Assembly: GCA_020724955.1 (NCBI GenBank)
Contig: DYFY01000003.1
Coordinates: 23,463-87,462 of the forward strand
Reading direction: 5' to 3'
Source of the DNA: Candidatus Parvarchaeum sp.
Lineage (GTDB): Archaea > Nanobdellota > Nanobdellia > Pacearchaeales > GW2011-AR1
Length of the DNA: 64,000 bases
This document shows, in pieces, positions 39,732 to 50,367 of the stretch. Made by a program: the position numbers and the translations under genes. The number at the start of each line of letters is the position of its first letter. The stretch's first letter is position 1. The notes below the pieces were generated by a model. It was not told the origin of the DNA. It did not search any database and was given only the letters and a program-made list of their open reading frames with translations.

Positions 39732-42071
39732 CTAAACAAAATTGCTTGCTCCTGCAACAAGACTGCATTGGTTTGTTCCGGGCTGATTTCCGAAATCATC
39801 AACGCATTTTATATGATATGTTTTTCCAGGCTGCCACTGGGCAAAATGCACTGTTTTTTTATCAACGTCCAGTATCTTCATCATTATTCCCGTGTTTGCC
39901 TCAAAATTGCAGTCGTTTAAAGAATAAGAACACTCAGCTTTCTCGCTTGTGATTATTTTTAAAGAGTCAACCCCTTCTTTATAAGCCCTTGTTATCAAAG
40001 GAGCTGTGTTGTCAGTTTCAACACTAAAGCTGACATTGGCAAAATCAGCATTTCCGCCAAGATCGACACACCTGAAATGATAATTGTAATTCCCGGAAGC
40101 GAGCTGTAAACTTTGTCTGTGTTTGAAGCTGTTTGTTTCAAACATTGCAATAAAGCTGTTTTCATCTCCCGTAGGACTAAAGTAACAGATGGCTTTTCCC
40201 TCTTCAGCTCCGTTGCTGGTTTCCAACTCAAGATCAACCTTCACAATTTCAGTGCTGTCAAAAATTTTCTCTCCTTCTTCTGGTTTGATGTCTATTATAT
40301 TAATCTCCTGGCTTCCCAACAGGCTGAATTCGTAGCTCTCTGTATTGACATTCCTGTCTTCCTCAGCTTTGCCGGGCTGGTCTTTGCATCTGAAATAAAA
40401 TTTGTTTTCCTGCCTGTCTTTTATTCCTGTTAAACTGGTTTTGCATTCATAAAGCTGTCTTGCATTCTGCTCATAAACCTCTGTAGAGCAGTTCATGGAA
40501 TTCTCCATGCTTTCATAAGCCTTGTCGTCTATGCTCCATTTGCATTCTGCAGGCTCATTAACAAAAGCAGTTATATCAATATTCTGGCTTCCAAATGCAA
40601 CAGGGCTTCCCCGCACTATTGATGTGTCTTCAATAATTGGAGGAGTTGTGTCTGGCGAAGGATCAACGCAGAAGCTAAACACAAACGCGTCCTCGTTTAC
40701 ATTTCCGTTGGCATCTCTGCACCTTACAAAAAAATCATATTTTCCGTCAGCGCCAATAATCAAATCCCCCTCTGCAGCTTCTGCCAAGGCATTAGGAGAA
40801 GGCAGTCTTAATGCCTGGGTGTGATTCTGCCTGAATAAGTTATTTTCTCCGAAGAAGAACCTCATGTCGTCAAATCTCATCTGGCTGTCTGTATCTATCT
40901 TGCATTGCGAAGGTTCATTTGTGGTCAGCCCAAATTCCAAAGCTGTAAACGCGGCAATGCATCCATTGGAGCTGTCTGTTCTAATTATTTTGGTTCCCAA
41001 AGCTGGTGGTCTTGTATCATGGCTTGTATATGTGTGCTTATCTGTCAAAGCGTCCTGCCAAGGAGTTATCGTCGGACTTGTGACATCACTTCTGCTTACC
41101 CAGACGCATTTTTCCTCGTCAGTGCCTGGATTCACGAGCTCGCATGCCTGCCCCAAACTCTTGCATCTGTATTCAGAGCAGGGCAATCCCCCGGAATTGC
41201 ACTGCTCGCAGTTGCTTCCCCCAAGAGGAGCCTCCCAAGGAAGGCATTGAAACTCAGCTATTTTCTGACTTTCCTCTTTGTACAACAAAACAAAAGTAAC
41301 AGCTGCCACTCCAATTCCTATTGCAGGAGCATAATTCAAAAAGAAACTACCTTTATCTAACAAGCCAAAACCACTTGGACCTAAAGAAGCTAAGCCCTTA
41401 TAAGACATTATTCCCGCAAAAGCTGCAATGCTTAACGCGTTAGTTGTTTCTTGCTCAACACCAGCAATTCCTCCTATCAATTGAATTGCTCCGACAACAG
41501 CCAAACTCCAAGCCAATCCTTCAAATAAATGAGCATACCCCCCTGTAATCTCAAGCCCTAAAAAGTCAATTTTCTTTCTGGAGGTTAAGGAAACCCCCTT
41601 ATCTGCCAAACCGCTTTTAAAAACATCAACCTGTTCATTAGGAACCGTATCTATTATTGTATCTCCCTCACCAAGCAGTCGCAAGTCTCCGTTAGAAGCT
41701 ACAGAAGTATCTTTAATATCTAAGAGATTTATTTTCTTTCCGCTAGGCGAAGTAAAAAAACTATCTTTGGAAATTGCAGAAGTTCCTGTAAGCCTTGCTC
41801 TTGATACACTGTCTACTTCTATTAAAGCAGCAGTTCCTTTACTTCCTGGTTTTGGCTGAATTCCTTCAAAATTCCATCCCATATATTGTTGTTGAGCACT
41901 TGTTCCTGGAGCGGGAGGACCAAGAATTTGAGAATTGGGAACTGGCTGCTCTTGCCCGCTAACAGCATTTGCCTCTCCGAGAATGAATCCAAATGCGGCA
42001 ATTGAAACCAGCATCAAAAATATCTCACCTAAACTAATGTTAACAATAAAGCTACTTCCTCTTTTCTGCAT
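39732..42071 (-). CDS. Large surface protein, the C-half homolog of the 1386-aa giant
   Basis: 779 aa. The order is a pilin-like N-terminus, a Gly/Ala-rich hydrophobic block, a Cys knot and four Ig-like modules. The N-terminus is MQKRG|SSFIVNISLGEIFLMLVSIAAFGFIL. The hydrophobic block is ...GLAWSLAVVGAIQLIGGIAGV...APAIGIGVAAVTFVLLY. It is followed by FQCLPWEAPLGGSNCEQCNSGGLPCSEYRCKSLGQACE. The four modules are about 110 aa each with the signature NEPxxCK...F[FY][FV]RC.D..GN. Confidence 0.6.
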   Translation of the reverse strand: MQKRGSSFIVNISLGEIFLMLVSIAAFGFILGEANAVSGQEQPVPNSQILGPPAPGTSAQQQYMGWNFEGIQPKPGSKGTAALIEVDSVSRARLTGTSAISKDSFFTSPSGKKINLLDIKDTSVASNGDLRLLGEGDTIIDTVPNEQVDVFKSGLADKGVSLTSRKKIDFLGLEITGGYAHLFEGLAWSLAVVGAIQLIGGIAGVEQETTNALSIAAFAGIMSYKGLASLGPSGFGLLDKGSFFLNYAPAIGIGVAAVTFVLLYKEESQKIAEFQCLPWEAPLGGSNCEQCNSGGLPCSEYRCKSLGQACELVNPGTDEEKCVWVSRSDVTSPTITPWQDALTDKHTYTSHDTRPPALGTKIIRTDSSNGCIAAFTALEFGLTTNEPSQCKIDTDSQMRFDDMRFFFGENNLFRQNHTQALRLPSPNALAEAAEGDLIIGADGKYDFFVRCRDANGNVNEDAFVFSFCVDPSPDTTPPIIEDTSIVRGSPVAFGSQNIDITAFVNEPAECKWSIDDKAYESMENSMNCSTEVYEQNARQLYECKTSLTGIKDRQENKFYFRCKDQPGKAEEDRNVNTESYEFSLLGSQEINIIDIKPEEGEKIFDSTEIVKVDLELETSNGAEEGKAICYFSPTGDENSFIAMFETNSFKHRQSLQLASGNYNYHFRCVDLGGNADFANVSFSVETDNTAPLITRAYKEGVDSLKIITSEKAECSYSLNDCNFEANTGIMMKILDVDKKTVHFAQWQPGKTYHIKCVDDFGNQPGTNQCSLVAGASNFV

Positions 42072-43050: not shown

Positions 43051-44583
43051 TCAACTTCTCACAACTTCATATCCTTCTTTGTAACCTTTCTGATTCACCC
43101 AATTCAGCTTCGGCCCGCAGTCCCCTAAAGCCGAGCAGACATCAGCTCTTTGCTTTTCCCATTCTTCTGTCAAACATTCGCAGTTTTCAACACACTCTTC
43201 TCCTCCAAAAAGCCCTTTTTCGAATTTTACAACGCACTGCACATTTGCCTGGCTGCATAAGGCCAATGCTTCCTCGCTGTTCCAAAACTCCAGCCCAGGA
43301 GGGTTTTTAGGAAGGCAGCTCCCATCAGCGCTATCATTAAGCCCTATAGTAACCCCTTCTTTCCAAAAACAATCCCTTCTGTCAGTATTTTCGCAGTCAT
43401 CCTGATTTGCCTGAGCCAAACAATCCTGCCATCTATTAACTCTGCATGCTGCCTGAGAAAACTCTCTCCCTGAGAATTCTATTGAATCTTCAAGACATTC
43501 CTCATTTCTGAAATCAGCGCAGGACTCTGTGATTATTTCTCCATTAACGCAAATCTGCCTGAAAAATCTGCTTCCTACTTTGTTGACTCCGTCTTTTGTT
43601 GTTTTGCCATCCCCGACGCACCAGCTCTCTCCGTGCAGCCTGTCTTTACCTTCAGAGTCTTTGCAGTTCAAATCAGCGCATATATAATCTCCGTAAATTG
43701 CATTCCCCCCTGATTTGTCTTCGGCCCTGCAGAAACTTCCAAGAAGATAATTGCAGTTCCCGCAGCTTCTGCTGTTTCCGTTTCCGCTGTTCGGACTGCA
43801 GCTCTCAGCTTTGTTTTTTACATTGGTCCAATAATCCTGGTCTTCTCTTTTGGACGAATCGTAAATGTTGGCGGGATTTCCGCAGGTGTCCACGTAATAA
43901 ACCTCATCTTTTCCAGGAAGGCATGTTGTTTTGTCTGAAGGTCCGCAGTTTGTGCCAAGCTCATCCGCCGAGCATAATTTATCTTCGAAGAAGATTCCTG
44001 TAATAGTTCCGTTATTGATTCCTGAATCACATTCAGCCCTGGTTGTAAATTTGCATGTCCTCTCAAACTCAAAATCATAAACGCATGCTCCCTTGTCCTG
44101 ATTAGAAACGCTCTGAACACACGCAAGCTCATTGCTTATTGATTTGTCATAATTTGTCTCAAGCCCTAATGAAGCAGAAAGTTTTTTGCATCTCACTAAA
44201 GTCACAAAAGCAGCCTGGTCGCCGAGCTTGCAGCATCCAAGCTCGCACTGCGGAGGATTTTCTTCGTTCCATATTCCTCCATTTTGGTTGCAGGTTATCT
44301 GTGGAGTGTTGTCAAGGCATGTTCCCTCTGTACTGCTGTAACAAACACCTGGCTTGCAGAAGCTTGTAGACTCGCACGAGGTAGGAACGTTTCTTGCCCC
44401 TTCTGCGCACTCGCTTGGCAGAACATCCTGGCAAAAGGCCCCGGAATTAGTTCTCTCACAGCACACTGTGTTAGTAGCCTGAGCCTGCACAGAAAACACA
44501 TGAATAAAAAACAAAAACACAGCTCCTATAATTAGGGCTGTCGCTGGTTTCCTGCCAATCAATTTTATTGTTTTTGGTTTCAT
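43051..44583 (-). CDS. Secreted cysteine-rich protein, the N-half homolog of the 1386-aa giant
   Basis: 510 aa with a Sec-type signal (ALIIGAVFLFFIHVFSVQAQA). It has roughly 60 Cys by eye. It is collinear with residues about 70-745 of the giant, for example GKDEVYYVDTCGNPANIYD with GKDGVYWIDSCGNRENIYE, and SCGNCNYLLGSFC with SCGNCNRFAGSVC. Its ATG overlaps the upstream stop as ATGA. Confidence 0.6.
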   Translation of the reverse strand: MKPKTIKLIGRKPATALIIGAVFLFFIHVFSVQAQATNTVCCERTNSGAFCQDVLPSECAEGARNVPTSCESTSFCKPGVCYSSTEGTCLDNTPQITCNQNGGIWNEENPPQCELGCCKLGDQAAFVTLVRCKKLSASLGLETNYDKSISNELACVQSVSNQDKGACVYDFEFERTCKFTTRAECDSGINNGTITGIFFEDKLCSADELGTNCGPSDKTTCLPGKDEVYYVDTCGNPANIYDSSKREDQDYWTNVKNKAESCSPNSGNGNSRSCGNCNYLLGSFCRAEDKSGGNAIYGDYICADLNCKDSEGKDRLHGESWCVGDGKTTKDGVNKVGSRFFRQICVNGEIITESCADFRNEECLEDSIEFSGREFSQAACRVNRWQDCLAQANQDDCENTDRRDCFWKEGVTIGLNDSADGSCLPKNPPGLEFWNSEEALALCSQANVQCVVKFEKGLFGGEECVENCECLTEEWEKQRADVCSALGDCGPKLNWVNQKGYKEGYEVVRS

Positions 44584-45386
44584 GCGCTCTCTCCCAATCC
44601 ATACCCTGCAGGCCAGACAAGGCTTCTGACTGCAAAGTTGAACTCATCACCAGAAACAACATTTTTCAGCTTATATACTTTATAGTCTTCCTTCCTTATT
44701 TTCTCTATTTTCAAATCAGGGTAATATTGCATGTAAAGCAAAGTTTCAGAATCTCCTAAACTTGATTCAAACTGGATTATGCTCGTCGCTATGCTAAGCA
44801 GATTGTAAATCTCGCTGTCAATCGCAATGGAAAACCTGTTAAATTTCTGGCTTCCTTCCTTAGTTATTGTTACAGGAGATAAAAAGTCAACTATTATTTT
44901 TCCAGGGAGCAAGTCAACGTTAATCTCTCCCGCATCCGCCTGCACGCTGTAACCTCTTTCTTCATAATACTCTTTAAGCTCGCTGACACAGCTCTTAGCT
45001 CTTGGTTCAACTCTGCTTTTTATCTCTTTTTTGACATGGTCTACCAGCAGAGGCTGTTGAACAACACAAGGTTTGTAATTTTCCGAAGTGTAACAAAGGT
45101 ATTGTATCTTTTGGTTTTCATAACTGACAAAACTATCCGGCTCTATATATCCCCCTTGGATTGAAATTGCCTGCACGCTGTCTCTGACTTCAGGCTCTAT
45201 ACAATCTCTCAGAAATCCGGAAGGGCTTGCCTCTGTCCTCTGTCCGATATCCAGATTAAAATTTTGAGCTAGAAAAAAAATTCCGATTATAGCAAGAATC
45301 AAAACAGCAACTATGACAAAAACAGCTATTTGCCCCTTTTTTTCCATGAGGAAAAAAGCACAATTTTGTTTATAATCTTTCCGCAT
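44580..45386 (-). CDS. Class-III signal peptide (pilin-like) protein, module B (paralog of 49546..50367)
   Basis: 268-aa ORF containing ...MEKKGQ|IAVFVIVAVLILAIIGIFFLA. An alternative start is at 45348. The ATG at 45386 overlaps the stop of the giant gene as TAATG. Confidence 0.55.
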   Translation of the reverse strand: MRKDYKQNCAFFLMEKKGQIAVFVIVAVLILAIIGIFFLAQNFNLDIGQRTEASPSGFLRDCIEPEVRDSVQAISIQGGYIEPDSFVSYENQKIQYLCYTSENYKPCVVQQPLLVDHVKKEIKSRVEPRAKSCVSELKEYYEERGYSVQADAGEINVDLLPGKIIVDFLSPVTITKEGSQKFNRFSIAIDSEIYNLLSIATSIIQFESSLGDSETLLYMQYYPDLKIEKIRKEDYKVYKLKNVVSGDEFNFAVRSLVWPAGYGLGESA

Positions 45387-48300
45387 TAATAAACCCCTCC
45401 CCCAACCTGCAAACAGCTCCCGCGGTTTCCAAAATTATCTTCACATCTGATTGTGTAAATCAAATCTTTTTTGAAGCTTTGCAGGGCGTGCTTCAATTCT
45501 GTTCCCCCGATTTCCGTGGCATTGTCAAAAGTTTCTCCAATAAGATTGGTGCAGCTTTCTTCTGTAACATATTTGCAAACAGCGTTCTCGTCCGTGATAA
45601 CATTCAACACGCCATTTGTATCATAAACTCTTGTTATTAAAGGCCCGTCGTTGTCAAAATCCAGCGTGAATTCTGCTTTCCCCTCTGCGACATTTCCAGC
45701 AACATCCTCGCATCTTATTGGAATTGAATAATTGCCTTCAATAAAAACATTAAATTCAGGTTGTTTGTGTAAACTCTCTCCTGTCTCAAGAAATGCAGAG
45801 AAGCTGTTGCCATAGCCAAACGAGCAGATAGCTTTTCCATTTTCAGCACCTCCTGAAGTTTTAACTTCTAAAGTTATTCGTGTTGGACCTTCAGCTAATA
45901 TTTTTCCTGAAGGTTTAATTTCTGTAATTGTCAAAGCACTCTGGCTCTTCTTTAAATTATAAATCACGCTCTGGCTGTTTGCATTTCTCTCCTTGTTGTC
46001 TGGATTGCTTATTTCAAGCCATGGCTGGTCTTTGCATCTAAAGTAATAATTATTTTCATCCCCTAAAATAGTTAAATTTGCTTCACATGGAAATCCAAAC
46101 AAAGTTTGGTCTCCAATTTCGTTTTTGCAGAAAGCTTCATTACTCATTAACTCATAAGTTTCATCTTTTATGCTCCATTTGCACTCGGCAGGTTCGTTGG
46201 TATAGAAACTTATTTTTTTATCAGTAGCATCCAGCCTCACAAAACTTCCGCTTTCCGGGCTGAATTCTGAAATTATAGGAGGGGTTTTATCATCTTCAGG
46301 AGAAAGGCAGAAATTTATAACATATTGAGGAACATTGGCATTTCCATTTTTATCTTGGCATCTTACATACAAGTTAAAATCTGCCCTCTCGTTTTGATTT
46401 ATTCCAGCAGAAGACAAACTTGCCAGGCTTGGGAGAGCAAAGCTCATTGAATGATTTGTTTTGTATAGATTGCTTCCTCCGAAAAAGCCGGACATTTCCT
46501 CAAAGCTGTTGGTATTCACCACATCTGTTTTGCACTGTGCAGCTTCATCAGTTTTAATTCCAATCTGAACCTGTGTATAAACAGGAAGGCATCCGTCGGA
46601 GGTGTTTCCTCTTGCTTTAAATCCAGAGTCAGATATCTCAATATATTCAACATTATCAGATTTAACCTCAGCATTTTCGCTTATTTTCGGGGGAACAGAG
46701 TCGCTCGGAGAAATATTGACGCAAGCTTCTTCTTCAGTGCCTTCGTTGATGAACTCACATGTCTGCCCGAGGCTTTCACATTTGTATTTGTTGCATGGCA
46801 ATCCGTCTTCAGTATTTCCGCACAATTTGCAGTTCTTCCCGCCGGCAGGGGCCTGCCAAGGCATACATCTAAACTCTACTCTTTTTTCTTCACCCTGTCC
46901 AAGGTAATAAGCCAATCCCGTAGTAATCCCCGCGACAAGTCCGACAGGTCCCAGAAAGCTGAAGCTCAAGGCCAAGCCGGTTCCGGATAATGCAAGAATC
47001 CCTCCTGTAATGCCACTGGCAGCCCCGACAAACAAAGCCTGATTTCCTTTGAGCCCCGCCGCTTTCGCAACAAGCAAGCCGATTCCAGCACCAGCAGCAG
47101 CAGAGACCAGTGCATTTCCTACAACCATTGCGTTTGCAGAAAGGCTGTCTGCTCCAAGAAAATAAGGTATATTGGCAATTCCTGCACCTGCACCTTCTAC
47201 TCCTGCGAGATAAGCCAAAGCATAATCCAAAGCATAAACTCCTGCTCCTGCCAATCCCACAAGCTCAGCAAGCTTTTCATCGGCGTTGGGGTCTTGAGGA
47301 TTTATGTTGTAAATTGCATATATCTCCTCTTTTGTCAAAGGCTGAGCGCTTTGTCCTGGGACTGCTTTCACCAATTCTTTAAGGGATGAAACATACCTCT
47401 CTCCAAGCGGTGGAGAATCTTCTATAAAAACTCCGTCATCTGTAAACTCTCCCGCCACATTAATATGCGCCCCACAATCTCCGAGACTTATACAAGCGTT
47501 GTTCATAGTTTCGCCAAAAATAGCTTCCCTGCATTTAGTATTTGTACTGCTTTCAAAAAGTCCGCCTCTGTAGGTATCGCAGTTAACGCTCAAAATACTG
47601 CACAACTTTTCTGATATTTCACTATCTGCCTCAAAATGAGCAGGGTTTTTTGGAACGCATATTGAAAACTTAAAATCGTCATCTATGTCAACATTTTTTA
47701 AATAACAATCGGTGTTGGCTTCGCACTCTTCTTTGAGCCTTTCAGGATTTTCCTGATGCTCATTAGCGGCGAGACATGCCTGCCAGTTGTTTGCCCTGCA
47801 CTCTGCTCTGGAGTTTCCTATTTGAGTTGTTTGCTGAAAACAAACTTCTTTTCTTCCAGGGGCGCATGGCTCAAGTATGACTTCTCCCTCACGACATACT
47901 TCTTTATAATGGCTGCTTCCCGGAATGTCAACGCTCCTTGCTGAATTCCCTGATAAGTCTATTATTTTTTTGTTCAGTTTATTTTGATTGCATATCTCTC
48001 CTGTAGATGCTTTAAACCCAAAAGAATATATTCCTGACTGGAAATTGTCAGGAATTCTAAATCTGTATTGAATTCCGGCGTTTCTGTTTTTTCTAATAAG
48101 CTCTATTTTTTCCAATGGTCCAGATGCAACGCTATTTTCTCGTGAAGGAAAGTAGTTTTGAAATTCAAGAGAATCGGCAACATTATTTCCTTGAGAGTCC
48201 AGCACGATAAGCTCAACAGAGATGTCTCTTAAAACAACATCATCAAGGCTCGCAAAAAATACATCGGCAGTGGCATAAACAAAATCTCCCGGCTTCAAAT

Positions 48301-49546
48301 CACCACTATCTAAAAAAATGGCTCGAACATTTATAGAATTTCTCCACTCTAAGTTTCCTATACTGGTTTCTCCAAAGCCACTTGGAGTTTCTCCGCATAA
48401 ATTGACATCAGGAGGTTCAATAAAATTTTGTTCAGGGCTTATCTCTCCATCAACCCCAATTTGTCCCTCTGTCACGCACCAGCTTTCCCCATTTTGTCTT
48501 GCATTTCCCCACCTGTCTGTACAGCCAAGATTTCTGCAGACAAAGTTTCCGTCAATAGGTTTGGTTGTTTTAGAGCTTGCAGGGCTGCAAACGCTTCCAG
48601 CAAATCTGTTGCAGTTCCCGCAGCTGGCAGCGCTTCCTAATGGGTCTCCTTGAGCCCCGAGCTCGCAAACATTTTCATCATTCAAATCCATGACCTTTCC
48701 ATTATTCCAGCTTCTGTCTTTTGCAGCCTGGCTTCCCGATTCGTAAATGTTTTCTCTGTTTCCGCACGAATCAATCCAATAAACTCCGTCTTTTCCTTCA
48801 ACACAGCTGGTTGTTTTTTGTCTTTCACACTCTGTATTTAAATCAGGATTCGAGCATAAATATCCGGAATAAAATTGCCCTTGTCTGTTTGCACACTCCT
48901 TTTTTGTTGTAAACTTGCATTTATTCTTTTCCCTTTCTGGATTGGCGGAAACACACGCTCCCTCGAAATCAGGGTCAATCATCGCGATACACTGAATTTC
49001 ATTGTTAACATCAGCATGGAAATTAAAGGTATTGCCTTCTGAAATTATTGCGCATTGCTGCTCGGTTGCAAGCTGTGCATTGCTTCCGAACAAACAGCAT
49101 CCCTGTCTGCATTCAGGGATTTCATTTATTCCATTTTCATTCCATTCAGCTCCGCCCTCTTCGCAAAAAAACTTTGGGCTGTTCGGAGTGCAAGTTCCAG
49201 AAATTTTATCTATACAAGTCCCTGTTTTGCACTGGCTTACAGCTACAGAAGAAACCGGGATACACGCTTCAGAACATTTAGAATCGCATTCACTACTCAA
49301 GTATTCCTGGCATTTTTTGCCTTGAATATCAACAAGGCATGTAGAAATAGAGATTTGAGTTTGCGCGCTGACTATTCCTTTAGAAAGCCATCCTAAAACA
49401 AGCTCTCTGATTTTAACAATCAGCCTGCTTTCTTCGGCATCTCCGCTGACAGCCATATAACTTGATTCGTGAAATATATACGCAAATGCAAAAATAGCGC
49501 ACACAATAATCATTATCTCAGATATGGCTGCCACTTCTTTTTTCAT
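45386..49546 (-). CDS. Giant (about 1386 aa) cysteine-rich membrane/surface protein equivalent to the 510-aa and 779-aa proteins fused
   Basis: I placed the start at MKKEVAAISEIMIIVCAIFAFAYIF (ATG at 49546, overlapping the upstream stop as TAATG); the track ORF starts at 49570. The domain order is an N-terminal TM helix, then a Cys-rich region with a CARDB-like insert. A Gly/Ala-rich hydrophobic block follows, then FRCMPWQAPAGGKNCKLCGNTEDGLPCNKYKCESLGQTCE and Ig-like modules. Confidence 0.65.
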   Translation of the reverse strand: MKKEVAAISEIMIIVCAIFAFAYIFHESSYMAVSGDAEESRLIVKIRELVLGWLSKGIVSAQTQISISTCLVDIQGKKCQEYLSSECDSKCSEACIPVSSVAVSQCKTGTCIDKISGTCTPNSPKFFCEEGGAEWNENGINEIPECRQGCCLFGSNAQLATEQQCAIISEGNTFNFHADVNNEIQCIAMIDPDFEGACVSANPEREKNKCKFTTKKECANRQGQFYSGYLCSNPDLNTECERQKTTSCVEGKDGVYWIDSCGNRENIYESGSQAAKDRSWNNGKVMDLNDENVCELGAQGDPLGSAASCGNCNRFAGSVCSPASSKTTKPIDGNFVCRNLGCTDRWGNARQNGESWCVTEGQIGVDGEISPEQNFIEPPDVNLCGETPSGFGETSIGNLEWRNSINVRAIFLDSGDLKPGDFVYATADVFFASLDDVVLRDISVELIVLDSQGNNVADSLEFQNYFPSRENSVASGPLEKIELIRKNRNAGIQYRFRIPDNFQSGIYSFGFKASTGEICNQNKLNKKIIDLSGNSARSVDIPGSSHYKEVCREGEVILEPCAPGRKEVCFQQTTQIGNSRAECRANNWQACLAANEHQENPERLKEECEANTDCYLKNVDIDDDFKFSICVPKNPAHFEADSEISEKLCSILSVNCDTYRGGLFESSTNTKCREAIFGETMNNACISLGDCGAHINVAGEFTDDGVFIEDSPPLGERYVSSLKELVKAVPGQSAQPLTKEEIYAIYNINPQDPNADEKLAELVGLAGAGVYALDYALAYLAGVEGAGAGIANIPYFLGADSLSANAMVVGNALVSAAAGAGIGLLVAKAAGLKGNQALFVGAASGITGGILALSGTGLALSFSFLGPVGLVAGITTGLAYYLGQGEEKRVEFRCMPWQAPAGGKNCKLCGNTEDGLPCNKYKCESLGQTCEFINEGTEEEACVNISPSDSVPPKISENAEVKSDNVEYIEISDSGFKARGNTSDGCLPVYTQVQIGIKTDEAAQCKTDVVNTNSFEEMSGFFGGSNLYKTNHSMSFALPSLASLSSAGINQNERADFNLYVRCQDKNGNANVPQYVINFCLSPEDDKTPPIISEFSPESGSFVRLDATDKKISFYTNEPAECKWSIKDETYELMSNEAFCKNEIGDQTLFGFPCEANLTILGDENNYYFRCKDQPWLEISNPDNKERNANSQSVIYNLKKSQSALTITEIKPSGKILAEGPTRITLEVKTSGGAENGKAICSFGYGNSFSAFLETGESLHKQPEFNVFIEGNYSIPIRCEDVAGNVAEGKAEFTLDFDNDGPLITRVYDTNGVLNVITDENAVCKYVTEESCTNLIGETFDNATEIGGTELKHALQSFKKDLIYTIRCEDNFGNRGSCLQVGGGVY

Positions 49547-50367
49547 TAAAATCCTGCGGGAATGGCGCACCCCCTTATAGCTATATGCATTTTCTTTCCT
49601 GTATTTTTATGCTCTATAGTATAAATCTCTGTCGAATCAGACATGACATTTTTGCGGACATCAAAATCCCTATAAAGCAGGCTGTATCCTTCAGCAGAAA
49701 AATGGCAGAATTGCGCTTCCTGCCTGACAATTTCAGAAGCAACATAACCAAGCTCGCCCAGCGGAGTCGGTAAAGTTGTCTTTATTTCCTCAAAAACCTG
49801 GCTGCTTCCAGAGCCAGAGACAACTATGTTTCCTGTCATTAAGATTTCGGCAGTCTCAGGATTCAGCATGACCTTTACACTTTCTATTTCTCCGGAAACA
49901 GCAAAATTTCTTCTTTCTGCTTCCTCTCTAAAAGAATTGAGGCATTCAGCAGCACCGGAGCTGATTTCTCTCTCAATTTCTCTCTCAATTTCACTCAAAA
50001 GAGCCGGATGCTGGTTTATGCAAGGTTTGTAATAATTTATGTTCTCGCACAAATATGTAGCTTTAATGTCATTAAAAGTCTTATAGTTTTGAGGATTGAC
50101 AAATCCTCCCTGCTCAATTGCGCTGTCTATCTTCTTTCTGGCTTCCTGCCTTATGCATTGGTCCAGGTAAGTTTCAGGATTGAACTCAGCACTTCCGGAA
50201 ATACCAGGAGAAATTCTAAAAGCAAAAAACAAAGAGACAACAGCTATAATAATAATAGCAACAATGATGAAGATAGCCACCTGCCCTCTTTTTTGCAAAT
50301 CAAATTCATTTCTTATGTTTACCAAATTTAACCTCACAGAAAAATTTAATTGCTTCCTCAACAACAT
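49546..50367 (-). CDS. Class-III signal peptide (pilin-like) protein, module A
   Basis: 273-aa ORF containing ...DLQKRGQ|VAIFIIVAIIIIAVVSLFFAF. The ATG at 50367 would overlap the RHH gene by 62 nt. A TTG at 50298 would give (M)QKRGQ..., parallel to MEKKGQ in its paralog, and is an equally plausible start. Confidence 0.5.
   Translation of the reverse strand: MLLRKQLNFSVRLNLVNIRNEFDLQKRGQVAIFIIVAIIIIAVVSLFFAFRISPGISGSAEFNPETYLDQCIRQEARKKIDSAIEQGGFVNPQNYKTFNDIKATYLCENINYYKPCINQHPALLSEIEREIEREISSGAAECLNSFREEAERRNFAVSGEIESVKVMLNPETAEILMTGNIVVSGSGSSQVFEEIKTTLPTPLGELGYVASEIVRQEAQFCHFSAEGYSLLYRDFDVRKNVMSDSTEIYTIEHKNTGKKMHIAIRGCAIPAGF

Follow-up and report, generated by a model that had tools for sequence, protein, structure and literature searches.

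How can a hydrophobic segment rich in glycine and alanine lie between two cysteine-rich domains of one protein, when both of these domains appear to be exported? This question is raised by a protein of 1394 amino acids (aa), here called the giant, whose open reading frame (ORF; 45386..49570, reverse strand) lies in a stretch of 64,000 nucleotides (nt) from Candidatus Parvarchaeum sp. (GenBank assembly GCA_020724955.1, contig DYFY01000003.1, positions 23,463 to 87,462). This whole stretch is referred to as the window, and all coordinates are given in its numbering. A 779-aa paralog of the giant is encoded on the same strand (39732..42071). Pacearchaeota and Woesearchaeota-type DPANN archaea are abundant, uncultured and presumed to be attached to other cells. 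Since an S-layer gene is a neighbour and pilin-like genes flank the locus, the family is a prime candidate for a part of a contact or envelope apparatus. The Gly/Ala-rich block is the one stretch for which contact with lipid is required, and its nature decides the kind of machine: it may be a plain anchor, it may insert into the membrane of another cell, or it may span a second bilayer.

We tentatively propose, with a probability of about 0.4, that the block is embedded in lipid as a helical junction and anchor, crossing the membrane four times in the giant. New are a three-helix core, obtained from covariation and AlphaFold2 (AF2), paired changes of cysteines, and odd cysteine counts in head and stalk. 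With these the problem becomes sharper. Three antiparallel helices stand between flanks that are both disulfide-bonded and exported, the charge bias points the contrary way, and a specific covalent link between head and stalk is predicted.

Results and Discussion

Properties and distribution of the block

By translation of the ORF, the block (window 46890–47275) corresponds to residues 766–894 of the giant. It contains 41.9% Gly and Ala, 6.2% charged residues (D/E/K/R) and 0 Cys; the protein outside the block contains 14.2% Gly and Ala, 23.9% charged residues and 65 Cys. Kyte–Doolittle hydropathy reaches peaks of 1.5–1.9 (KD19). The sequence FRCMPWQAP, in which C902 is the first cysteine of a knot, follows directly. 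The initial annotation had described such a block in front of this motif and an equivalent one near 41270–41560 in the paralog, and both could be confirmed (Table 1). All homologues examined have retained this hydrophobic, helical block, contrary to the loss that the initial annotation had named as a possible refutation. The same annotation had pointed to small-xxx-small repeats of the glycine-zipper kind. In the sequence of the giant taken alone, these do not exceed what its composition provides (30 i/i+4 pairs versus 27.7 ± 2.8 in shuffled sequences, p = 0.26); at the level of the family the spacing is borne out, as described below.

A phmmer search with the 779-aa protein among 1.84 billion representatives returned 2411 clusters at E ≤ 1e-3, 1273 of them at E ≤ 1e-30. 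The matches start at residue ~175–180, which is the start of the block, and the conserved unit thus consists of the block and the C-terminal module (C-module). All named matches are ‘hypothetical proteins’ of Pacearchaeota or Nanoarchaeota. Among 201 sampled genomes of the phylum 40 carry the family, concentrated in few taxonomic families (4 of 4, 7 of 8, 7 of 8 and 4 of 4 genomes), and the genomes that have it usually hold two to three tandem copies. Split forms, among them the 779-aa paralog, make up ~90% of the sampled family, fused forms such as the giant being the minority. No description was found in the DPANN literature searched. The proteins form a large and so far undescribed family of surface proteins in tiny DPANN archaea.

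Known families gave little guidance. Scans against Pfam and NCBIfam with both proteins, their neighbours and the isolated blocks yielded nothing above cut-off. The glycine-zipper families PF13488 (Gly-zipper_Omp), PF13441 (Gly-zipper_YMGG), PF13436 (Gly-zipper_OmpA) and PF05433 (Rick_17kDa_Anti/SlyB) gave no match at E ≤ 1 with the whole proteins, and for the blocks alone, taken from the giant, from the paralog and from one typical fused homologue, none was seen even at E ≤ 10. Sequence searches of the PDB with profiles of the whole family and of the block revealed no significant match, and Foldseek with the block model none below E = 1.7; its non-significant neighbours were almost all integral membrane proteins. 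A weak match to 3wxx_B (AopB, a translocator of the type III secretion system, T3SS) was seen with the family profile (E 0.28) and with the block model in Foldseek (E 1.8), neither being significant. It disappeared with the block-only profile and is probably explained by shared composition.

Helical structure of the block

AF2 models were calculated for the paralog from a 138-sequence alignment and for the giant over residues 735–1000. In the paralog three helices were predicted with a predicted local distance difference test (pLDDT) score of 81–87, namely Ha (residues 179–202), Hb (207–229) and Hc (245–264). The N-region (39–170) is disordered in this model, and the C-module reaches pLDDT 94–98. 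The corresponding helices of the giant, H2, H3 and H4, are listed in Table 1.

Independent evidence was obtained by mean-field direct coupling analysis of 270 sequences, for which the numbering of the 779-aa paralog (P0002) is used throughout. As a control, the beta-hairpin in the knot was recovered (309–324, 311–325, 313–323). Ha and Hb are coupled in an antiparallel register over their full length (i+j ~404–415; E184–K225, S189–M222/F218, V193–S214, I196–A217, G201–T210), and so are Hb and Hc (i+j ~472–478; L227–I251, S223–V255, A219–T259, A216–A256, A212–L263). The central helix H3/Hb accordingly covaries with both of its neighbours. Both registers were recovered from either half of the randomly divided alignment and also by mutual information with average product correction. 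Ha–Hc pairs, which might indicate contacts between subunits, were absent from the top couplings. Residues 176–178 in front of Ha covary with the Hb–Hc linker, which places these two Gly-rich segments as caps at one end of the bundle, termed end A. Its LFG motif contains G172, which is 89% conserved. The Gly-rich motif that caps end A is uncharged. At the opposite end, end B, the core carries the acidic loop as well as the basic cluster, which passes directly into the Cys knot of the C-module.

Columns 185/189, 200/204, 212/216/220 and 252/256 are occupied by Gly, Ala or Ser in 84–100% of the sequences. In Hb the three columns 212, 216 and 220 are small in 84, 97 and 99%, with G220 itself being 98% conserved. 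These columns sit on the covarying contact faces of the helices (for instance A216–A256, A219–T259 and S189–F218/M222), so that small residues at i, i+4 and i+8 on a packing face, the hallmark of a glycine zipper, are found across the family. Q197 is coupled to S214/N211; otherwise polar positions occur only at the helix ends, and the variable positions remain hydrophobic. As modelled and as read from the couplings, the conserved core is a set of three antiparallel helices of ~20–25 residues, hydrophobic on all faces and packed through conserved Gly, Ala and Ser with one buried Gln–Ser/Asn contact.

According to the alignments, fused forms begin with a weak Gly-rich helix H1 and a variable uncharged G/A/S linker, followed by the LFG...GG motif and H2. 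A short acidic loop connects H2 to H3, and a Gly-rich linker connects H3 to H4; a basic cluster (KTKKK or YKKEKQK) then leads to VxFxCxPW, with which the knot starts. Split forms have no H1. Insertion free energies (dG) were estimated with a simplified Hessa scale; they are approximate and do not come from a calibrated predictor. For H1 a dG of +4.9 was obtained in the giant, with a Kyte–Doolittle value of 1.46, and of +0.1 to +5.6 in fused homologues; for H4 the values are +2.7 to +4.1 in the giant versus a median of −0.9 in fused homologues. The giant is atypical among the fused forms in its weakly hydrophobic H4 and in having QGEEKR in place of the KTKKK cluster (46868–46897).

Export and disulfide bonding of the flanking domains

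The initial annotation had presumed from cysteine richness that both flanks of the block are extracytoplasmic. This view is strengthened by the way in which the cysteines change. The C-module has a nearly constant length of 501 ± 5 aa (5th–95th percentile 489–517) and ends after its fourth beta-sandwich without a hydrophobic tail. It contains 21 Cys in 245 of 276 members, 23 in 19 and 19 in 6. Cysteines are lost together in the pairs (371,468), (528,543) and (721,769) and gained together in (490,622), (634,664), (669,675) and (354,359). The lost pairs are replaced by K/E, K/T, L/G, N/L and R/S and never by metal ligands; metal sites as the reason for the pairing were rejected, as neither His nor Asp takes their place. 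Foldseek related the C-module to tandem Ig/FN3 ectodomains with E-values of 5e-13 to 1e-8 at low TM-scores. Matches of the window proteins to Big_13 (PF19077) and DUF4625 (PF15418) reach 15.5–22.6 bits, weak against the cut-off of 27, and many homologues carry precomputed matches to these families.

The genome served as a control. ORFs with only an N-terminal signal or anchor contain 2.3% Cys, and 77–84% of them have even counts; ORFs without a hydrophobic segment contain 0.9% Cys with 39–42% even counts. Cytoplasmic disulfides in this organism were rejected, since its cytoplasmic ORFs show no bias towards even numbers. Extracellular disulfide bonding appears to be pervasive in this DPANN archaeon, its exported proteins being Cys-rich and mostly even in count. 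Paired gain and loss, the Ig/FN3 fold and the genome-wide control together argue that the C-module is exported and disulfide-bonded. Glycosylation was uninformative as a marker of sidedness: N-glycosylation sequons occur in the C-module at a ratio of 0.83, and other exported Cys-rich proteins are likewise depleted.

For the N side, export follows from the signal-like helix, which has a basic N-tail and precedes a conserved V-S-A, from the Cys-rich heads and N-regions, and from the signal peptide of the 510-aa protein, a homologue of the giant's head. The signal or anchor helix (TM0 in the giant) is conserved throughout the family in Q/E16, I17 and F25-A26-F27-A28-F29, followed by V-S-A. Conservation of these N-terminal helices (49472–49528 in the giant, 41973–42053 in the 779-aa protein) is far above the expectation for a cleaved signal peptide. 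With respect to a class III signal peptide, K/R is common at family positions 3–4; the columns of the following Gly are filled in ~57% of the sequences, with Gly in 38% there, ~6 residues away from the hydrophobic stretch. Judged by its sequence, the V-S-A site looks more like a signal-peptidase I site than a class III motif. A coupling of TM0 to the block was considered and rejected, the couplings being inconsistent and at noise level.

The region between signal helix and block is a lineage-variable exported display region. In 36 split forms it contains 2–30 Cys, mostly in even numbers, in knottin-like or LysM-like modules. The split-form homologue P0054 has a LysM-like module (VTKGENLWGIAKTN...YPGQKITV) between signal helix and block, and other homologues have small knottin-like modules of the type Cx5Cx5Cx4C.

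Odd cysteine counts are rare among the exported proteins of the organism. They were nevertheless found in the head (43) and stalk (21) of the giant as well as in the 510-aa (43) and 779-aa (21) proteins; the knot itself has 7 invariant Cys including a CxxC. Heads of fused homologues contain 39–47 Cys, nearly always an odd number, and in all fused homologues with a Cys-rich head, apart from the divergent P0028, an odd head and an odd stalk add up to an even sum. The simplest reading of this parity is one disulfide between head and stalk. Counts of this kind suggest that a single inter-module disulfide joins the two.

Membrane topology

If the block sits in the membrane, it may serve as an anchor and as a mechanical junction between the Cys-rich head and a stalk of the knot and four Ig-like domains. 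In the fused giant the weak H1 would add a fourth pass, giving two hairpins with both lobes outside, and the protein would be a two-lobed cell-surface protein specific to DPANN. Since both flanks are exported, the giant can be accommodated by a junction that crosses the membrane an even number of times, the four-pass arrangement being the most economical. Composition and hydropathy match those of membrane helices, in both window proteins AF2 confidently predicts three helices long enough to cross a membrane, and in most fused homologues H4 is a classic transmembrane helix with dG values down to −7.7. At least four hydrophobic windows are present in 20 of 26 fused forms.

Several observations weigh against this arrangement. 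Whatever slab three antiparallel helices cross, their ends A and B come to lie on its opposite faces, yet both flanks are outside. For the split forms, with three helices only and both flanks exported, three passes cannot leave both outside. A hidden fourth helix was looked for between signal helix and Ha and none was found, also in the 36 members with Cys-rich N-regions: the best windows have a median dG of +10.5, and 237 of 240 members lack a window below +3. The fourth pass of the fused forms can therefore not be shared with their split homologues, and H1 itself is poorly conserved and of low AF2 confidence. In the giant all four helices are merely marginal (dG +2.7 or higher), on a scale that is simplified and uncalibrated. 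Lys and Arg are also distributed in the wrong sense, with ~4.4 at the C-module end (end B) versus ~0.5 at end A in fused forms. Positively charged residues flanking membrane helices tend to remain inside the cell, and by this positive-inside rule the C-module end would be cytoplasmic, opposite to the four-pass model. The rare cysteines of the block form close pairs at end A, which the model places in the cytoplasm; together with the charge bias, they point to end A outside and end B inside. The membrane rules, which put the C-module inside, and the disulfide evidence, which puts it outside, contradict each other.

The initial annotation had offered a choice between an even number of crossings and a latent membrane-insertion element. 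Put in this way the choice does not hold, because the conserved core has three helices, an odd number, and an even count is reached only in fused forms through the weak H1.

Further candidates for resolving the conflict were discarded. P0194, which seemed to start at Ha or Hc and thus to offer a natural topology experiment, is a contig-edge artefact with the LFG motif in frame upstream of the called start; P0128 was rejected for the same use, its start probably lying at a conserved internal Met. A non-helical crossing by the LFG/GG motif before Ha was rejected, since this motif is coupled to a single end of the bundle only and often has charged residues beside it. The shortest N-regions have ~35–45 aa, too long to force a hairpin geometry.

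Next in rank, and unlikely in our assessment, stands a block that does not span the membrane of its own cell. The chain after the signal helix would be translocated entirely, its helices being just under the stop-transfer threshold. Outside the cell it would be sheltered by partners, either the translationally coupled pilin-like proteins of 273 and 268 aa or the head, and it may later enter another membrane in the manner of glycine-zipper effectors, T3SS translocators and viral fusion peptides. Parity is then satisfied for fused and split forms alike. In both window proteins all block helices are marginal, their dG values lying between +2.7 and +4.9, whereas the signal helices have −0.5 and +0.6; the family median for Hc is +1.4. 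The end that has to cross the bilayer is uncharged and Gly-rich, with the charges beside the stalk, and in some homologues R-GLFG precedes the first helix. As precedents, secreted proteins are known whose glycine zippers insert into target membranes (PMC10240207, PMC10434224), and Gly-packed helical hairpins have been described for fusion peptides (PMC8634857, PMC5855800). Against this, H4 has dG values of −3 to −7.7 in many fused homologues, and the translocon would integrate such a helix. The block is hydrophobic on every face and lacks amphipathic shielding helices, and an up-down-up unit of three helices cannot span from outside unless one large flank crosses. A basic residue 3–7 positions upstream of G172 occurs in only 39% of 220 sequences, with no position above 17%, and a conserved cleavage site is thus not evident. 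The block also has no match to a toxin, translocator or glycine-zipper family, the scores for AopB being those given above.

The odd helix count, a capped hydrophobic rod of transmembrane length and disulfide-bonded flanks would all be accommodated if the rod spanned a bilayer with extracytoplasmic space on both sides, that is, an archaeal outer-type membrane or the membrane of a host. The LysM-like module in the N-region of one homologue, comparable to the periplasmic LysM module of intimin, and the six pilin-like genes of the locus, reminiscent of trans-envelope pseudopili, are in line with such a rod. We regard it as improbable: a second membrane has no evidence in these archaea, an S-layer gene adjoins the locus, and we know of no route by which helices are inserted into a distal membrane. 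In fused forms the head of 700 aa and the stalk would moreover come to lie on opposite sides, against the proposed disulfide, unless H1 spans as well. It is quite unlikely, too, that the family represents a helical, intimin-like trans-membrane adhesin or cell–cell junction of DPANN archaea that spans a host membrane or an unrecognised outer-type membrane and holds a single, maybe redox-switchable, disulfide between head and stalk.

Very unlikely is an ordinary membrane protein whose four passes are made by the signal helix together with the core helices, the knot and the Ig-like C-module being cytoplasmic. Parity works here for the split forms, the K/R bias and the Cys pairs at the end placed outside are explained, and Hc followed by YKKEKQK resembles the basic-tailed stop-transfer anchors of other exported proteins in the window. 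The behaviour of the C-module cysteines argues strongly in the opposite direction, with counts that shift by two and pairs that are lost or gained together, as do the genome-wide difference between exported and cytoplasmic ORFs and the match of the fold to extracellular Ig/FN3 strings; H1 of the fused forms would in addition have to be non-spanning. A soluble element without a function in the membrane, be it a buried hydrophobic core or a Gly/Ala linker that is flexible and of low complexity, would agree with the composition-driven spacing in the single sequence and with the low complexity and low AF2 confidence of H1 and the linkers, but is highly improbable given three helices of fixed length and register with covarying contacts across more than 2000 clusters, hydrophobic faces all around without an amphipathic pattern, and the strongly hydrophobic H4 of homologues.

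Locus and genome context

The window is archaeal, with a PCNA gene and a primase gene on the flanks of the locus and a GC content of 32–43%; the genome comprises 735 kb. The locus is a tandem duplication of two modules. Module A consists of a gene for a 273-aa pilin-like protein and the fused giant, module B of genes for a 268-aa pilin-like protein, the 510-aa secreted Cys-rich protein, a 229-aa lipoprotein-like protein and the 779-aa protein. Residues 66–704 of the giant share 35% identity with the 510-aa protein (BLASTP E 2e-47 and 7e-18), and residues 804–1383 share 36% identity with the 779-aa protein (E 3e-99). After the modules, four small pilin-like genes and the S-layer gene follow, which brings the pilin-like genes of the locus to six. 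Both modules occur in identical gene order in another Pacearchaeota assembly. The coordinates of the individual features are compiled in Table 1.

Table 1. Features of the giant, its 779-aa paralog (P0002) and the 510-aa protein in window coordinates.
Feature	Residues	Window position	Strand	Basis and remarks
TM0, signal/anchor helix of the giant, AISEIMIIVCAIFAFAYIF	15–33	49472..49528	−	Approximate insertion dG −0.46, most hydrophobic segment of the giant
Cys-rich head (N-domain) of the giant, 43 Cys	78–699	47474..49339	−	Homologous to the 510-aa protein
H1, weak extra helix of fused forms only	763–788	47207..47284	−	AF2 helix, hydrophobic half pLDDT ~46
YFLG, family ‘LFG’ motif capping the N-terminal end of the core bundle	801–804	47159..47170	−	Aligns with FLG 170–172 of P0002
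H2 = Ha, first core helix	812–837	47060..47137	−	AF2 pLDDT 76–83; full-length antiparallel covariation with H3/Hb
H3 = Hb, central helix with small-xxx-small-xxx-small face	843–861	46988..47044	−	AF2 pLDDT 77–83
H4 = Hc, last core helix	870–891	46898..46963	−	AF2 pLDDT 67–80
C-module of the giant, 7-Cys knot (C902–C950) and four Ig/FN3-like beta-sandwiches, 21 Cys, to stop codon		45386..46867	−	P0002 homology, AF2 of the paralog
Three-helix block of the paralog	179–264	41280..41537	−	AF2 helices pLDDT 81–87; covariation registers
C-module of the paralog, 21 Cys	276–779	39732..41246	−	AF2, Foldseek, Cys count
510-aa secreted Cys-rich protein, split-off head of module B		43051..44583	−	Own signal peptide, homology to the head of the giant, 43 Cys

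The start of the giant is ambiguous. The GTG at 49570 gives MRHSRRILMKK with the twin-arginine-like SRRILMK, and the database copy of 1386 aa begins at an ATG 24 nt further downstream (MKKEV); the RR motif of the GTG-start N-terminus (49546–49570) is not kept in homologues. Over the same 25 nt (49546–49570) the gene of the 273-aa pilin-like protein overlaps the start of the giant, and at 45384–45388 the stop codon of the giant shares one base with the start codon of the gene for the 268-aa pilin-like protein. These overlaps suggest that translation is coupled through module A and onwards to module B. An assembly ATPase was not found within the locus; elsewhere in the genome two T2SSE-type ATPases and one STT3/AglB homologue occur.

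Comparison with known systems

Transmembrane glycine zippers are known from the N-terminus of VacA and from TM3 of MscS, and the corresponding Pfam families contain hairpins of two transmembrane helices (2TM) of the SlyB type. As in these, Gly, Ala and Ser at i, i+4 and i+8 form a helix interface in the block (columns 212/216/220). The block differs in having three helices rather than a 2TM hairpin or a single helix that forms homo-oligomers, and in its position between two disulfide-rich ectodomains.

With the type VI secretion effector Tde1 (PMC10240207), the type VII secretion effector TelE (PMC10434224) and the T3SS translocators AopB, YopB and IpaB, the family shares the principle of an exported protein with Gly-rich hydrophobic helices. 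A relationship in sequence or fold is lacking, neither a secretion-system context nor a chaperone is evident, and many homologues have a helix too hydrophobic for free export.

In gene context the locus resembles the modules of minor pilins and a large adhesin in type IV filament systems, such as PilY1 with PilVWX/FimU, and archaeal proteins with class III signal peptides. Each giant is, as the overlaps suggest, translationally coupled to a pilin-like gene with a KRGQ or KKGQ motif, and four small pilin-like genes follow. Adhesins of the PilY1 type have no internal hydrophobic helical block; in the N-terminal helix of the giant a [KR]G cleavage motif is not seen consistently, and the assembly ATPase is missing from the locus.

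Class I viral fusion proteins combine a receptor-binding subunit with a fusion subunit that carries a Gly/Ala-rich fusion peptide, and in gammaretroviruses the surface and transmembrane subunits (SU–TM) are joined by a disulfide. Similarly, the Cys-rich head of the giant is followed by a Gly/Ala-rich hydrophobic segment, each module has, by its odd count, one unpaired Cys, a CxxC lies in the knot of the second module, and fused and split versions are equivalent. In contrast to the viral proteins, the C-module has neither a C-terminal membrane anchor nor heptad-repeat coiled coils, the second module being a beta-sandwich stalk, and no conserved basic cleavage site is evident in the family. In P0030, P0037, P0038 and P0040 the motif before the first core helix reads (R/K)-x0-2-(G)LFG, as in ERGLFGIF, and is thereby similar to the start of the HA2 fusion peptide of influenza virus.

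The inverse autotransporters intimin and invasin consist of a signal peptide, a periplasmic LysM module, a 12-stranded beta-barrel membrane domain and tandem Big domains. The membrane domain is where the two systems part, the block being helical (AF2 predicts helices only) instead of a beta-barrel, in an archaeon without a demonstrated outer membrane. The family shares with them the order of the domains and the extracytoplasmic flanks and, in one homologue, the LysM-like module; tandem Ig-like domains are suggested by the weak Big_13/DUF4625 matches and by Foldseek.

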